The position numbers and the translations under genes are program-made. This document shows, piece by piece, positions 9,340 to 16,604 of a DNA stretch of 64,000 bases. The stretch is from a phage: sequence record PX421306.1. One strand, given 5' to 3'. A model generated the notes under the pieces. That model saw nothing but the letters and a program-made list of their open reading frames with translations, was not told the DNA's origin and ran no database searches. Positions within the stretch are counted from its first letter, which is position 1, and every line of letters starts with the position of its first letter.

Positions 9340-9795
9340 TTAAAAGAGGCTGTTCATTATTCGGTAAAGTGAAGGACCCATCACATATTGCCACTGAGTA
9401 CGAGGAATAAGGGCAAAAGCATCCATCTCTGGAATCATAACACCATCTTTATTTTCAAAATAAGACTCGCAATGGCAATTTCTAAACATCTCATGCTCTA
9501 CTGGAATCGTATAATAAAATAACTGTAAGTCTTTATTACTAGAATATTTAAATACACCTAGGTCTTCTAGAAGGTCTGGACTATAATTGCTAAAACCGGT
9601 CTCTTCTAAACATTCTCTTCGTGCTGCATCTAGTGCGCTTAAATCAGAATTTTCTACGCGCCCCCTTGGAATATCCCAGCGATGTGCCATCATTCCAGGC
9701 TTACGAGAACCAGTAACTCGTCCCATAAATAAATCTTTATCTTCTGTCATAAAGATAATACCAGCTGATAATGTTTTCATTTTAATTTCCTGCAT
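9340..9795 (-). CDS. nudE: Nudix hydrolase
   Basis: 151 aa; Nudix box GRVENSDLSALDAARRECLEETGF; position downstream partner of e as in T4. Confidence 0.85.
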   Translation of the reverse strand: MQEIKMKTLSAGIIFMTEDKDLFMGRVTGSRKPGMMAHRWDIPRGRVENSDLSALDAARRECLEETGFSNYSPDLLEDLGVFKYSSNKDLQLFYYTIPVEHEMFRNCHCESYFENKDGVMIPEMDAFALIPRTQWQYVMGPSLYRIMNSLF

Positions 9796-10265
9796 TCGGT
9801 GATAAAATTATTTAAATTTTGAGTATATTTCTTTTCATCAAAAATCTTTTGCTGCCTACGTAACCGCCATGGCATTTCAATGAACACGCACCATATTCCT
9901 GATAGTACTGCTGCTGTAAAAATATTAACAAGTATAATTAAAAGAATCCAATCTTCCGTTCTGCCTACTGGACTTTCTCCAAAGAAGCAAAATACAAATG
10001 ATGTCACAGGAAAACTAATAATATACCACAGAATAACCTTCTTATCTGTGAACCAATCAGCGTTCGTTAACTTAGCGCGACCATTTCGAATACACACGAA
10101 TTTATCATCTGTTACAGTAGATGGCTTAACTGCTTGATATCCCATTCTAAACTCCCTAATCAGCAAATTTTTCATATCTTCGGAACAGCCATTCCAGTCA
10201 ACTCTATCGACTGAAATGCCATCGTCCCCATCATCTAAATCATACCAGCGAGTTTTTAAAATCAT
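9777..10265 (-). CDS. small membrane protein (2 predicted TM helices)
   Basis: 162 aa; hydrophobic segments VILWYIISFPVTSFVFCFFG and WILLIILVNIFTAAVLSGIWCVFI; C-terminal ...ECRKLK tail. Confidence 0.55.
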   Translation of the reverse strand: MILKTRWYDLDDGDDGISVDRVDWNGCSEDMKNLLIREFRMGYQAVKPSTVTDDKFVCIRNGRAKLTNADWFTDKKVILWYIISFPVTSFVFCFFGESPVGRTEDWILLIILVNIFTAAVLSGIWCVFIEMPWRLRRQQKIFDEKKYTQNLNNFITECRKLK

Positions 10266-10516
10266 TTAATTTTCCTACAATCACTCACAAACTCTTCCAT
10301 TGATTCTTTTTCAATATAAGACATGTAGTTATTATATTCCTTTAATTGTATTTTGTAATCCTTTTTTCTTTGCCAATTTATTTTAAAATTATCATAATGA
10401 AAATATAACATGGTACCAAAGAATGAAAATAATGAAATCGCTATAGTATAACGAAGTTCACTCCAAACCTCTGTTATAATTACTGTGCCGTCGATGTTTA
10501 AAATAATACAGTCCAA
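10262..10516 (-). CDS. small membrane protein
   Basis: 84 aa; one hydrophobic helix; C-terminal ...DCRKIK tail similar to neighbour. Confidence 0.5.
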   Translation of the reverse strand: MDCIILNIDGTVIITEVWSELRYTIAISLFSFFGTMLYFHYDNFKINWQRKKDYKIQLKEYNNYMSYIEKESMEEFVSDCRKIK

Positions 10517-10606
10517 TTAACAATCCAATAAGACTACCAGCAAGAGCTGCAAATACTGACACGGCAAGAATTAATAGTGCCTCAGGAAACGAATATTTGA
10601 CTTTAT

Positions 10607-11020
10607 TTAGTTTTGGCTTTTGCATCGTGATTCCTTAACAAATTTCATAATTTCATTAAATTCATGCATATCAAGTTTAAGCTGGTGTTCCTTTTTAATC
10701 TTTTTACACTGAGCTTTCCATTCGCGTACGCGTTTACGATAATGTCTTCCTTGATACCAGTATCCTACCCAATTTACAGGTACTAATAAAAGTGGAACTA
10801 TTAATGGAAGAATTAGCATTAACACAAGTATTTCGCCAGAATCAATATCAGTCATAACATCTAAAACACCTCCAATAATCAATAGAATTACAAATGATAT
10901 GAGTATAACAGGACCTATTAATACATCAGTAGAAATTAGCTGACGCTTTGGTTCATACTTCACAGGTTTACTTGGAAGGTATAGTGATGGCTTTGACATA
11001 TTCTCTACATTCCTTAACAA
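10607..11020 (-). CDS. small membrane protein (2 predicted TM helices)
   Basis: 137 aa (true start may be internal ATG at 10999); hydrophobic helices; C-terminal ...ESRCKSQN. Confidence 0.5.
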   Translation of the reverse strand: MLRNVENMSKPSLYLPSKPVKYEPKRQLISTDVLIGPVILISFVILLIIGGVLDVMTDIDSGEILVLMLILPLIVPLLLVPVNWVGYWYQGRHYRKRVREWKAQCKKIKKEHQLKLDMHEFNEIMKFVKESRCKSQN

Positions 11021-11573
11021 ATTTTTCTAATAATAAATCGCTTTCAAAATTAGGATTTTCCACGAATTTATCAAAAAGATCATCAACGATAGTTAAGATA
11101 TTCTTTTTACTAAGAATACGCTTATTTTCATATTTTGTTTCAGAGTCAACTATAAGAGTAAAGAAATATTTCTTTCCCTGAAATTTTACCGTAGTATCAA
11201 TATAGAACAAATTTGACTTTTGTAAATTACGTTTAAACCATGCGTCACTTAAACTGTAAACGCCAAGATAATCATAATCGTCATTTAAATAACAAACTGT
11301 CCATTCAGGAGAAATGAAATCAGTAAATTCAACATCAAAATCACACGTCAATGAATGAATTGATTCAATACTTTTAATGAGTATTCCAGGACGTATTAAA
11401 GACTTTTTACCTTTATAAAATCCAGAAAGACTTTCATCAGTTTCATATGAAGACCCCCAATAGTAATTACGTCCTTCTGCCATACGTTTAAGAGCATTTA
11501 GTAATTGGTCTGGAACATCAATCTGTCTTTGGAACTCTTCAAACATTGAATTGAAATCACTTTGCATTTTCAT
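10968..11573 (-). CDS. hypothetical protein
   Basis: 201-aa ORF; no recognisable motif; overlaps downstream gene. Confidence 0.55.
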   Translation of the reverse strand: MKMQSDFNSMFEEFQRQIDVPDQLLNALKRMAEGRNYYWGSSYETDESLSGFYKGKKSLIRPGILIKSIESIHSLTCDFDVEFTDFISPEWTVCYLNDDYDYLGVYSLSDAWFKRNLQKSNLFYIDTTVKFQGKKYFFTLIVDSETKYENKRILSKKNILTIVDDLFDKFVENPNFESDLLLEKFVKECREYVKAITIPSK

Positions 11574-11594
11574 TCCTATTTACTCCAAGTAATA

Positions 11595-11620
11595 GGGGCC
11601 GAAGCCCCTTATCATTATTT
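11595..11620 (-). terminator. possible intrinsic terminator
   Basis: GGGGCCGAAGCCCC tetraloop hairpin in intergenic gap; flanking T-richness moderate. Confidence 0.4.
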
Positions 11621-12208
11621 CAGAGAATTAATGTATTCCTGAACATCGGCAGAGGTAGTTTCAACCCCAGAAATATTGCCGTTAAAAGTTTCAACTCGAG
11701 CAAGGGTATCTTCAATATCAACCTTAGTCAGTGCTGCAATTTCAACTACATCATCGGCAGTACTAATTCCAAGGGCATTTGCCGCACGAGTTTCACGGAT
11801 ATATTCCAATTTAACTGCAAGTTCTTGGCGAGCATCATCTAACTCAACTACTTTCTTGGCGATTTCAATTCGCATTTCAGCATAACCGTCAGCTTTAGTA
11901 GTCAACTGCTCAGCTGTTCGACGATATAGCAAACCGAGTTTAGCATGCATTGTTACATCTTGACCTTCGGAAAGAAGTTTACGAATTTCACGCTCTTTTG
12001 ATTCGGCCTGTCGATTCTTTTCGATAACAAGTTCACGAATACGTTTTTCTTCATTAATAGATTTAATAGAAGCAGTTTTTAGATCTTTAATTTTATCAAG
12101 TAATTTTGCTGCTGCAGCAGTATACTGTTCTTCGACAGATAGATTTTTAGCCATAGCAGAACCAAGTTTAGTGCGAATAAACTCAACAATTTTCTTCAGT
12201 GTGTTCAT
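11615..12208 (-). CDS. coiled-coil protein, possibly PspA/IM30-like
   Basis: 197 aa, almost entirely helical heptad-like K/E/R-rich sequence; early-type promoter upstream, hairpin downstream. Confidence 0.55.
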
Positions 12209-12244
12209 AGTATTTCCTTAGGTTGATTGAAATTTAAAATCCAT

Positions 12245-12280
12245 GGAAGTATTATATCTTGTTCTCCAAGGGATGTAAAC
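12245..12280 (-). promoter_or_regulatory. early-type promoter
   Basis: Minus-strand GTTTAC (12275-12280) and TATAAT (12251-12256), 18-nt spacer; upstream of coiled-coil gene. Confidence 0.5.
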
Positions 12281-12283
12281 ATG

Positions 12284-12679
12284 TTATTTCATTTTTGCGA
12301 GGCAGATTTCATTGGCTTCCCATTGGGCTTGCTTAATAATAGCTTTGGATACAGGAACCTTTTGACCATAAGTTTTTGATGTTGAGAGAACAATATATTT
12401 GTTTGCCTCATTATGCCAACCCCACGATTTTTCACCATGAGTACCTTTAACTACAGCTGACACCTCAACAGAACAACCATCAGCTCCAATCTTGGTATCC
12501 ACAATCCATTCATTTCTCTCGGCAGCTTCATTTTCCGATCTCATTTTTTCTTCATACACGGCGGCCCAATCAGTTTTTGTCAAGCTTAAACTAAGAGCTT
12601 TCTCTAATTCTTTGGCAGCTTTTTGTTGTTCGGGTGTTAATGAATTATATAACTCTCGCATTTCTTTATCTTCACTCAT
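12284..12679 (-). CDS. hypothetical protein
   Basis: 131-aa ORF with its own upstream promoter-like motif. Confidence 0.55.
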   Translation of the reverse strand: MSEDKEMRELYNSLTPEQQKAAKELEKALSLSLTKTDWAAVYEEKMRSENEAAERNEWIVDTKIGADGCSVEVSAVVKGTHGEKSWGWHNEANKYIVLSTSKTYGQKVPVSKAIIKQAQWEANEICLAKMK

Positions 12680-12704: not shown

Positions 12705-12740
12705 TAGATAATATCACGTTTCCAATAGATTGTAAACTTA
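12705..12740 (-). promoter_or_regulatory. early-type promoter
   Basis: Minus-strand GTTTAC (12732-12737) and TATTAT (12708-12713). Confidence 0.45.
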
Positions 12741-13073
12741 TTCTTCGTCTAGTTCATCGATAAAGGCGTCGATGGCCTCGACAACGGCATCATTGATAGC
12801 CAATAAAATAAAATCATCGTCAGTACCTTTAGAAGATTCTAAAGCATTGATATATGCTTGGTTGGCGAGTTCCCAAGCCTTTTTAAAATAAGGAGCTTCA
12901 TCATCAGGACAAATATCCCGCACACCTTCAAAGATACGATTGGCATAATCTAACACCCATTGTACAGGCATGTTTTGAGAACGTTCATTAAACTCTTTAA
13001 AGTCCTTAGATTCAAAAAGCTCTTCAGGATAATCATTTCTATTACAAAAATCTTTGCTAAAGTTACGTTTCAT
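12738..13073 (-). CDS. hypothetical acidic protein
   Basis: 111-aa ORF, acidic C-terminus; promoter-like motif upstream. Confidence 0.55.
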   Translation of the reverse strand: MKRNFSKDFCNRNDYPEELFESKDFKEFNERSQNMPVQWVLDYANRIFEGVRDICPDDEAPYFKKAWELANQAYINALESSKGTDDDFILLAINDAVVEAIDAFIDELDEE

Positions 13074-13855: not shown

Positions 13856-14419
13856 TTATTTATCTAGTTTAGTTATTATAGCTTCTGCGGCAGCTTTTAG
13901 CTTAGATGCGGTGTTAATACGATTTTTAATTTCAGTATACGCATCGCCAAGAACATCAAGGCTATCAGAATAAACACTTACGCTATTGCGTTCGCTATTT
14001 GAAATAGAACCTTTAGTTTTACGATCAAAATCGGTGTACACGTCTTGAAGATCACGGGCTGCCTTCTTTGCATCATCCAATGCATCAAGAGCTTTATTCA
14101 AAGCATTAACGTATTTTTTAGTGTCGAACATATTCTTAGAAATTTTAACAGGTGCGCGTTCAGGAGTAGCTAATGCAGATTTAGGAACCTGAGCGCCAGA
14201 TGCCAATTTCTTAGAAATTTTGAAAAACGCTTTATTGAATTTATTTTCTTGACTCATCGTAAAAGAACTATTATCGATGTTGTACATTTCAATAGCTTTA
14301 GCTTTCCACTTAAGAAAATCGCCGCGGTCTTTTGGGTCCAAGTGGAAGAATACTTTAGTAAGATCTGCTTCAGATGGTAATTTTGCTGCTTCGGTTAAAA
14401 ATTCGGCATAGGTTTTCAT
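13856..14419 (-). CDS. internal-protein-like capsid-targeted protein
   Basis: 187 aa; N-terminal MKTYAEFLTEAA capsid-targeting leader; flanked by terminator hairpins. Confidence 0.7.
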   Translation of the reverse strand: MKTYAEFLTEAAKLPSEADLTKVFFHLDPKDRGDFLKWKAKAIEMYNIDNSSFTMSQENKFNKAFFKISKKLASGAQVPKSALATPERAPVKISKNMFDTKKYVNALNKALDALDDAKKAARDLQDVYTDFDRKTKGSISNSERNSVSVYSDSLDVLGDAYTEIKNRINTASKLKAAAEAIITKLDK

Positions 14420-15772: not shown

Positions 15773-15848
15773 TGGTCGAGGCAGTAGGGATCGAACCTAC
15801 GACCTAGGACTTAGAAGGTCCTTGCTCTTCCTTCTGAGCTATGCCTCG
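15773..15848 (-). tRNA. tRNA-Arg (anticodon UCU)
   Basis: Hand-folded cloverleaf: acceptor CGAGGCA/TGCCTCG, D-stem GCTC/GAGC, anticodon loop CUUCUAA, T-loop TTCGATC, encoded CCA. Confidence 0.8.
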
Positions 15849-15852
15849 GATT

Positions 15853-15927
15853 TGGCGGACGTGATAGGATTCGAACCTATAACCAATCGCTTAACAGGCG
15901 ATCGCTCTGCCATTGAGCTACACATCC
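15853..15927 (-). tRNA. tRNA-Asn (anticodon GUU)
   Basis: Hand-folded: acceptor GGATGTG/CACGTCC, anticodon loop CUGUUAA, T-loop TTCGAAT, encoded CCA. Confidence 0.7.
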
Positions 15928-15931
15928 AAAT

Positions 15932-16018
15932 TGGTGGGGAGTGATGGAGTCGAACCACCCGAGTCGCAATGACAATGGATTTACAGTCCACACCGCTACC
16001 TCTACGGGATAACTCCCC
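15932..16018 (-). tRNA. tRNA-Tyr (anticodon GUA), long variable arm
   Basis: Hand-folded: acceptor GGGGAGT/ACTCCCC, anticodon loop CUGUAAA, long variable arm, encoded CCA. Confidence 0.7.
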
Positions 16019-16031
16019 TTAATTCTTAATT

Positions 16032-16106
16032 TGGTGGCCCTGGGTGGAATTGAACCACCATCTGGCGATTATGAGTCGCTTGCTTGAACCTTCCAGCTAC
16101 AGGGCC
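16032..16106 (-). tRNA. tRNA with CAU anticodon (Met or lysidine-modified Ile)
   Basis: Hand-folded: acceptor GGCCCTG/CAGGGCC, anticodon loop CUCAUAA, T-loop TTCAATT. Confidence 0.7.
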
Positions 16107-16107
16107 T

Positions 16108-16183
16108 TGGTGCTGATTGACGGAATCGAACCGCCGACCTTCTCATTACAAGTGAGTTGCTCTACCTACTAAGCTAAATCAGC
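16108..16183 (-). tRNA. tRNA-Thr (anticodon UGU)
   Basis: Hand-folded: anticodon loop CUUGUAA, T-loop TTCGATT, encoded CCA. Confidence 0.75.
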
Positions 16184-16188
16184 AAAAC

Positions 16189-16278
16189 TGGCGGAGGCGA
16201 TAGGATTTGAACCTATGAGTCGCCGGAACGACTGCCGGTTTTCAAGACCGGTGCATTAAACCACTCTGCCACGCCTCC
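16189..16278 (-). tRNA. tRNA-Ser (anticodon UGA), long variable arm
   Basis: Hand-folded: acceptor GGAGGCG/CGCCTCC, anticodon loop CUUGAAA, long variable arm. Confidence 0.75.
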
Positions 16279-16281
16279 AGT

Positions 16282-16354
16282 CTCCATACAAGGATTTGAA
16301 CCTTGGACCTCCTGATCCCAAATCAGGCGCTCTACCAAACTGAGCTACACGGAG
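16282..16354 (-). tRNA. tRNA-Pro (anticodon UGG), CCA not encoded
   Basis: Hand-folded: D-arm TAGCTCAGTTTGGTAGAGC, anticodon loop UUUGGGA; abuts 5' end of tRNA-Ser (dimeric precursor arrangement). Confidence 0.7.
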
Positions 16355-16364
16355 TAAATTAAAT

Positions 16365-16438
<74 letters not shown>

Positions 16439-16443
16439 AAATT

Positions 16444-16530
16444 TGGTGCGAGAAGTGGGACTCGAACCCACAAGGAAATCATTCCGCAGCATTTTAAGTG
16501 CTGTGCCTTTACCAATTTGACCATTCTCGC
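16444..16530 (-). tRNA. tRNA-Leu (anticodon UAA), long variable arm
   Basis: Hand-folded: GCGAGAATGGTCAAATTGGTAAAGG..., anticodon loop CUUAAAA, T-loop TTCGAGT. Confidence 0.8.
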
Positions 16531-16531
16531 G

Positions 16532-16604
16532 CTGGGAATAAAGGACTCGAACCTTTGCATCCTGGAATCAAAATCCAGTGCCTTACCAACTTGGCTAATT
16601 CCCA
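16532..16604 (-). tRNA. tRNA-Gln (anticodon UUG), CCA not encoded
   Basis: Hand-folded: TGGGAATTAGCCAAGTTGGTAAGG..., anticodon loop UUUUGAU; directly abuts tRNA-Leu (dimeric precursor). Confidence 0.75.

Follow-up and report, generated by a model that had tools for sequence, protein, structure and literature searches.

We analysed a 64,000-nucleotide stretch of phage DNA (sequence record PX421306.1; hereafter the window) with attention to one open reading frame (ORF) encoding 197 amino acids (aa), whose product a first-pass annotation, made from the letters alone, had proposed to be a coiled-coil protein of the PspA/IM30/ESCRT-III type. The ORF is where that annotation placed it, and runs on the minus strand (Table 1). 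Its orthologue in bacteriophage T4 is gene e.6: the window protein is identical to T4 e.6 (NP_049742.1, 'conserved hypothetical protein') at 193 of 197 residues (98%), and the gene order, e / nudE / e.2 / e.3 / e.4 / e.5 / e.6 /.../ tRNA cluster, is that of T4 and also matches that of phage ime09. The surrounding 2 kb shares 94-96% identity with many Escherichia and Shigella phages, and the phage is of T-even (Tequatrovirus) type.

The family to which e.6 belongs is large. The window protein falls in PHROG 1203 ('unknown function') with an expectation value (E) of 3e-87, and a tblastn search found homologues in ~1,100 of 50,697 phage records, at identities down to ~32%. The host genera of the matched phages include Escherichia, Shigella, Klebsiella, Enterobacter, Aeromonas, Yersinia, Citrobacter, Salmonella, Cronobacter and Stenotrophomonas; the family spans Straboviridae and Ackermannviridae, with Erwinia phages also represented. 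This conservation, together with the PHROG match and the RNA and protein reported for the T4 gene, indicates that the ORF is more than a chance occurrence.

The early-type promoter that had been placed within 12245-12280 and the hairpin that had been placed downstream of the ORF are both present. The promoter, which is preceded by a G (GTTTACA), is the top-scoring promoter-like site of the 2.5 kb scanned. That region is AT-rich and contains 12 promoter-like sites, compared with 10.1 +/- 3.1 in shuffled sequences, so that the scan by itself is weak evidence. The assignment agrees, however, with the 'T4 early promoter' annotated at the equivalent place in OL960580.1, a phage ~96% identical across this stretch, and with data from T4, where e.6 RNA is classed as early and the protein has been detected and classed as middle (PMC9697503 supplement). 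Transcription of e.6 proceeds from an early promoter that belongs to the gene itself; the RNA of the T4 orthologue is early, and its protein is made. The hairpin region has a local fold of -15 kcal/mol (z = -1.8), and OL960580.1 also carries a 'rho-independent terminator' annotation at its place. Its U-tract is poor (AUUACUU), which makes read-through from e.6 into e.5 (ATG downstream at 11573) likely, and the UUCG hairpin between the two genes may be a partial or weak terminator or an RNA-stabilising element.

Table 1. Coordinates of e.6, its expression signals and the predicted elements of its product (positions in the window)
Feature	Position	Strand	Basis
e.6 coding sequence (197 aa; ATG start, TAA stop at 11617-11615)	11615-12208	minus	ORF list
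Shine-Dalgarno AAGGA, 6 nt 5' of the ATG	12215-12219	minus	sequence inspection
Sigma-70 / T4-early-type promoter, (G)TTTACA-17 nt-TATAAT	12251-12279	minus	11/12 consensus match
GC-rich hairpin AGGGGC-UUCG-GCCCCU	11594-11609	minus	5 nt past the e.6 stop; terminator-like scan and fold
Codons 2-22: amphipathic helix of net positive charge at the N-terminus, equivalent to α0; predicted membrane-binding element	12143-12205	minus	AlphaFold2 and alignment to Vipp1/PspA α0
Codons 25-145: predicted helical hairpin (α1 25-80, tip E81-G82, α2/3 86-145)	11774-12136	minus	AlphaFold2, co-linear hidden Markov model (HMM) and hhalign alignments
Codons 151-196: two short predicted C-terminal helices (151-175, 186-196) at the place of PspA α4/α5	11621-11758	minus	AlphaFold2

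Profile similarity of the e.6 family to PspA and Vipp1

We used two profiles to place the window protein. Profile A1 was built from T4-type sequences only (30 sequences sharing at least 47% identity). Run by hmmsearch against 1.84 billion cluster representatives, it gave 45 proteins at E up to 0.001, of which the full-length matches were ~200 aa and some were only ~18% identical; none exceeded 209 aa, so that this exhaustive search contained no protein of PspA length. Profile A2 is a diverse alignment of 35 members taken from that list. When the A2 members were scanned singly against Pfam, five of the 35 matched PF04012 (PspA_IM30) at E <= 10, with a best E of 8.9e-10, and no named family with a known function was matched in the scan by as many members. 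The gathering score of PF04012 is 33.9 bits; P0065 and P0066 score 35.1 and 39.0 bits, their residues 6-146 aligning to model positions 2-143 of 220, and a third member reaches 22.3 bits.

These two divergent bridging proteins, both from Ackermannviridae-type phages, belong to the same family as the window protein. Both match the A1 profile over its full length, with E values of 1.4e-21 (P0065) and 2.6e-20 (P0066). P0066, which occurs in the Klebsiella phages vB_KpnM-20 and Zahir, in Escherichia FEC14 and in Salmonella moki, falls in PHROG 1203 (E 3.5e-65) and has PF04012 in its precomputed annotation as well, and tblastn pairs it with RB43/GAP161-type phages (~1e-19) and with genes annotated e.6, such as that of PEi20 (2e-7). 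Membership of the window protein in PF04012 can thus be assigned at the level of sequence transitively, via the family profile A1 (E ~1e-21 to 3e-20), and not directly.

The A2 profile also picks out PspA and Vipp1 among proteins of solved structure. When A2 was searched against all sequences of the PDB, Vipp1/PspA chains ranked first (E 2e-4 to 2.7e-3, positions 1-146 aligned to 1-147), and unrelated coiled coils began at ~1e-3 with short and partial alignments. With A1, the Vipp1 chains appeared at non-significant E values (1.8-4.4), yet in co-linear alignment (4-143 to 4-145). Aligning A2 by hhalign to a target made of 24 enterobacterial PspA sequences and Vipp1 residues 1-149 gave a probability of 90% (P 1.6e-6, score 45.8) over 168 co-linear columns beginning at residue 1. 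In the controls, the score fell to 17.8 for the reversed target and 18.1 for the reversed query, to a mean of 12.5 (maximum 17.5) after column shuffling, and to a mean of 16.3 (standard deviation 3.1, maximum 26.0) after shuffles in seven-column blocks that preserve the heptads. Judged by these profile comparisons, the homology of the e.6 family to bona fide PspA/Vipp1 exceeds the coiled-coil background. Identity between e.6 and E. coli PspA in the hhalign alignment is ~13-14%, and the T4-type subfamily is the most diverged branch.

Homology between e.6 and PspA is not a new discovery, having been published in 2021 and 2022. Klebsiella phage Metamorpho gp163, described as 'a homolog of T4 protein e.6', gave an HHpred match of 99.9% to E. 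coli PspA 4WHE_A (PMC7862958), and phrog_1203, represented by Gp_125 of the Salmonella Kuttervirus SeF3a, was called PspA-homologous (PMC9409062). Both proteins are of the same family as e.6 (PHROG 1203), and these published links (HHpred, pdb70) agree with the present tests. In PMC9409062 the gene figures as a peculiarity of a single Kuttervirus, whereas here the family comprises the canonical T4 e.6 and ~1,100 phage genomes. What is further added to those two single remarks is a definition of where the homology ends: the C-terminus is unsupported and a direct Pfam match fails. PspA-like genes are found in other phages too, namely the Jug jumbo phages (next to terD) and Acinetobacter phage ME3 ('PspA/IM30 family protein').

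Predicted fold and the extent of the homology

The product had been described as nearly all helical and highly charged, which holds: in an AlphaFold2 model made on the diverse alignment (predicted local distance difference test, pLDDT, 83.8), the helices listed in Table 1 account for 173 of 197 residues (88%), and D, E, K and R make up 34% of the sequence. In the model, the order of the helices matches the α0-α5 layout of PspA/ESCRT-III, with an α1-α2/3 hairpin followed by α4/α5-like helices, the arrangement by which the superfamily of ESCRT-III, PspA and Vipp1 is recognised. A Foldseek search of the PDB returned Vipp1 at all of ranks 1-9 (E 9e-4 to 6e-2), followed by the archaeal ESCRT-III protein CdvB2. 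Confidence is highest in the hairpin core, where pLDDT exceeds 90 across most of codons 25-145 and where the sequence homology to PspA/Vipp1 is co-linear with their residues 25-146. The N-terminal helix is predicted to be an amphipathic helix of the membrane-binding type found in the PspA/IM30 family: in the model, helix 2-19 has a hydrophobic moment of 0.45 (PspA 0.42, Vipp1 0.57) and a net charge of +3, against a family mean of +2.7.

The C-terminal third behaves differently. In PspA and Vipp1 the α4/α5 region mediates polymer contacts. The corresponding helices of e.6 are modelled at a pLDDT of 59-83 and include the family-conserved Y192. A permissive hhalign alignment pairs an e.6 stretch ending DTLARVETF with PspA KLDEAMARFESFE (ending EAMARFESFE) and another stretch with DAISEQLAQLKAK, and the PF04012 matches of P0065 and P0066 stop at model position 143 of 220. 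By sequence comparison, the homology signal appears to be carried by α0-α3, with no significant similarity to PspA detected in the C-terminal third.

Set beside E. coli PspA (PF04012, 4WHE), then, e.6 has the same N-terminal amphipathic helix and the same ~120-residue hairpin, with matching helix boundaries, profile homology across residues 1 to ~146 and a similar size (197 aa against 222 aa). It differs in an α4/α5 region of ~50 aa, compared with ~75 aa in PspA and not demonstrably homologous to it, and in being carried by a lytic phage under a sigma-70-type early promoter instead of sigma-54/PspF control, with no pspBCDE or pspF nearby. The best sequence and structural match among solved structures is cyanobacterial Vipp1/IM30 (sll0617; 7O3W, 6ZVR, 8QBR), which shares the basic amphipathic α0 with e.6. 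Vipp1, however, is a cellular thylakoid-maintenance protein of ~267 aa with an extra C-terminal helix, α6, and it forms rings and rods, whereas an e.6 polymer is a prediction. With the ESCRT-III proteins (archaeal CdvB2, eukaryotic Snf7/CHMP) e.6 has the superfamily fold in common, CdvB2 filaments being found by Foldseek at E 0.08-0.26, but no signal at the level of sequence; neither a Vps4-type ATPase partner nor a MIM motif is evident for e.6, though no detailed test of this was made.

A number of results weigh against reading e.6 as a phage-borne PspA. Taken alone, the window protein has no match to PF04012 in Pfam even at E <= 10, no PDB match by phmmer and no relevant NCBIfam match, and its link to PspA depends on intermediate sequences. 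The A1 profile alone reaches an hhalign probability of only 3%, and its exhaustive search did not recover cellular PspA at database-wide significance; the A2 search of a 5.8-billion-protein database, in which a word prefilter was limiting, likewise returned no cellular PspA and nothing beyond the e.6 family. The amphipathicity of α0 is marginal relative to shuffled sequences (6%), and residues 147-197 score 15.1 against PspA 145-222 in hhalign, compared with a shuffled maximum of 15.4. Outside the protein, no neighbouring ORF has a Pfam match to PspB, PspC or PspF, and the Ackermannviridae loci, in which the PspA-like gene lies near uvsX and a DnaB-type helicase gene, have neighbours different from those of the T4-type loci. 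Finally, knock-down and insertion screens in T4 gave no e.6 phenotype: the gene was scored 'Not Fit' on dCas13d knock-down (CRISPRi-ART; PMC11879866 supplement) and 'Non-essential', with 43/43 sites hit, by HIDEN-SEQ (10.1101/2025.11.20.689424 supplement). e.6 is dispensable in T4 under standard laboratory conditions.

Against these stand the bridging PF04012 members, the A2 search of the PDB, the hhalign score with its controls, the Foldseek ranking and the published HHpred match, and we conclude that e.6 is very probably a compact, highly diverged homologue of PspA/IM30 (Vipp1) and hence belongs to the ESCRT-III superfamily. As a statement of homology, the first-pass proposal is therefore upheld. 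Its caution that the similarity is weak was well placed for the window protein, which lacks a direct PspA match in Pfam or phmmer. Two findings had been named there as grounds for abandoning the proposal, namely an absence of profile similarity to PspA/IM30 and identity with a T-even coiled coil already known for some unrelated function. Neither is the case, since the A2 similarity survives shuffled and reversed controls and T4 e.6 has no other known function. The weak top matches of the window protein itself (USP8_interact, LegC2C7, sll1863_fam) were set aside as coiled-coil noise.

Gene neighbourhood and annotation of the family

The neighbours of e.6 belong to phage-only PHROGs of unknown function. 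The absence of a pspBC- or pspF-like neighbour, together with the sigma-70/T4-early promoter, makes e.6 a PspA homologue outside any Psp system. The gene lies just 5' of e.5 and of a series of genes for small predicted membrane proteins (e.2, e.3 and e.4; 9777-11020, minus strand). In the Ackermannviridae (L002:7391-7951), the PspA-like gene is directly followed by a gene for a predicted membrane protein, phrog_11433, which is unrelated to e.5 in sequence (BLASTP E 0.45, different PHROG), so that no conserved e.6-e.5 pair was found. PspA-like and membrane-protein genes may nonetheless form a recurring pairing, loosely like that of pspA with pspBC, although homology was not detected.

Within the run of membrane-protein genes, the e.3 homologue (predicted membrane protein; 10262-10625, minus strand) is split by a 1-bp insertion, ATTGGACTG in place of the 'ATT-GACTG' of T4 and ime09. 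The split leaves a 55-aa ORF (10458-10625) and an out-of-frame 84-aa ORF (10262-10516), the latter matching phrog_2330 at positions 37-122 only. Possible readings are a pseudogene created by the frameshift, a mistake in the sequencing or a gene that is split on purpose.

On the other side of e.6, an extra 131-aa ORF (12284-12679, minus strand; phrog_8232, unknown function) stands between it and the ORF at 12738-13073, which is in phrog_7266, the PHROG of T4 e.7; in T4 the gap between e.6 and e.7 is 62 nt only. Nucleotide similarity to most relatives stops at ~12675, which marks this as a variable insertion point. Further along, a 187-aa ORF of all-helical appearance (13856-14419, minus strand) belongs to phrog_2280 and is RB69ORF149c-like; its sole match in Pfam, weak and sub-threshold, is to cytochrome b562 (E 0.007). 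The cluster of ten tRNA genes (15773-16604, minus strand) comprises Arg, Asn, Tyr, Met, Thr, Ser, Pro, Gly, Leu and Gln. Compared with T4, it has Asn, Tyr and Met, lacks Ile and is uninterrupted by a segB homing-endonuclease gene.

Homologues of e.6 carry two functional names in the databases. 'Host specificity protein', used in many records and UniRef clusters, is unsupported, the gene being transcribed early and its knock-down or disruption in T4 being without a measured fitness effect. Nothing was found to support 'tail completion protein', the name of the homologue in Klebsiella phage UPM 2146. Both look like propagated annotation errors. A divergent member of the family, P0083, comes from a 50.5-kb contig and bears the label 'hypothetical protein [Proteus mirabilis]'; phage DNA in a bacterial assembly may account for it, or else a prophage or cellular copy of the family.

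Possible roles of e.6 during infection

T4 blocks host transcription early, within minutes of infection. One way to view the function of e.6 is in relation to this shut-off, which would leave the cell with no PspF/sigma-54-dependent Psp response of its own; the phage would then supply its own PspA-like effector in the form of e.6. The protein would bind the cytoplasmic face of the stressed inner membrane through helix α0 and would polymerise via its hairpin in the manner of PspA and Vipp1, lowering the proton leak, such that the infected cell would stay energised for the latent period (at least 25 minutes, and far longer under lysis inhibition). The stresses countered in this way would be damage from injection and superinfection, holin accumulation together with lysis inhibition, and abortive-infection effectors that depolarise the membrane. 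On this analogy with the cellular proteins, the most likely role of e.6 would be that of a phage-supplied membrane stabiliser made during host transcription shut-off, a proposal that we regard as evenly balanced between being right and being wrong.

The reasoning behind it is that early host shut-off, combined with the need for an energised membrane, would mean that the phage cannot rely on an inducible host PspA. The psp genes of the host are only weakly induced by T4 in comparison with ΦX174 (PMC12795941), which agrees with an early block to host transcription, and PspA attaches to membranes and mends their leakage of protons (Kobayashi et al. 2007, as cited in PMC12795941). That e.6 is dispensable in the laboratory is what would be expected of a conditional accessory function. 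In the literature on e.6 or on phage-encoded PspA we found two bioinformatic remarks and genome-wide screens only, and no functional study. One of those remarks includes a one-sentence proposal that Gp_125 could be an anti-abortive-infection factor preventing loss of the proton-motive force (PMC9409062). A more specific form of the stabiliser proposal would make e.6 a counter-defence 'membrane insurance', an early ESCRT-III-like polymer that patches the inner membrane against RexAB-type, CBASS, retron or gasdermin-like membrane effectors as well as superinfection damage; this we put forward tentatively, considering it unlikely in that form.

A polymer of this superfamily might alternatively shape or organise the inner membrane without repairing it, for instance serving membrane-attached replication or prohead-assembly sites or the timing of holin action and lysis. 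Polymers of PspA, Vipp1 and ESCRT-III are described as tubulating, fusing and budding membranes, and the position of e.6 in a block with the small predicted membrane proteins e.2-e.4, like that of phrog_11433 downstream in the Ackermannviridae, would suit such a role. The neighbours of the T4-type and Ackermannviridae-type loci are not conserved in sequence, however, and the dispensability of e.6 for plaque formation implies that any structural part it plays in assembly is probably not an essential one. We consider remodelling distinctly improbable.

The portion of PspA that e.6 retains by sequence, α0-α3 (residues 1-146), suggests a different role again, in which a PspA-like hairpin would bind the host PspF or the PspB/C sensors and thereby silence or rewire the Psp response, without working on the membrane directly. 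This portion approximates the PspA fragment described as PspF-binding, the C-terminal region being diverged, and the published HHpred match is to the 4WHE fragment itself, which we take to be the crystallised PspA(1-144) described as the PspF-binding domain. In T4 infection, however, host transcription is shut off and psp is weakly induced, leaving little to repress. The basic amphipathic α0 is conserved family-wide, which argues for contact with the membrane, and phages that infect Aeromonas, Stenotrophomonas, Klebsiella and Erwinia have members of the family too. Mimicry of this regulatory kind therefore seems very doubtful to us.

The hairpin architecture common to e.6 and host PspA would also allow a dominant-negative effect, with e.6 co-assembling with the host protein and inactivating or redirecting it, and in Klebsiella the properties of the envelope and the susceptibility to phage can shift when the pspA allele is altered (PMC12234005). 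With an identity of ~13-14% to E. coli PspA and diverged C-terminal helices, however, a heteropolymer is doubtful, and we give this possibility little credence. That the likeness to PspA/Vipp1 is a compositional or heptad artefact, and e.6 an unrelated coiled coil with some other function such as 'host specificity', is largely refuted and scarcely credible, given that no reversed, column-shuffled or heptad-block-shuffled control scores above 26, compared with 45.8, that all alignments are co-linear from residue 1, that two members pass the Pfam cutoff and that the published HHpred match stands at 99.9%.

Although T4 is the reference lytic phage, e.6 is still listed as 'hypothetical' or of 'unknown function' in its reference record and in the genome-wide screens of 2025, the homology to PspA having been poorly propagated into annotation. 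Recognising the relationship to PspA/Vipp1 yields a testable hypothesis, namely that large lytic phages bring a membrane-maintenance factor with them because they switch off the inducible one of the host. If this is true, the 'phage shock' system, named for the stress that phage induce, would gain a phage-encoded counterpart, and e.6 would offer a minimal ESCRT-III-like protein of 197 aa for mechanistic study. If the 'membrane insurance' proposal were also true, e.6 would be the first case of a virus putting a repair machine of the bacterial ESCRT-III family to functional use.

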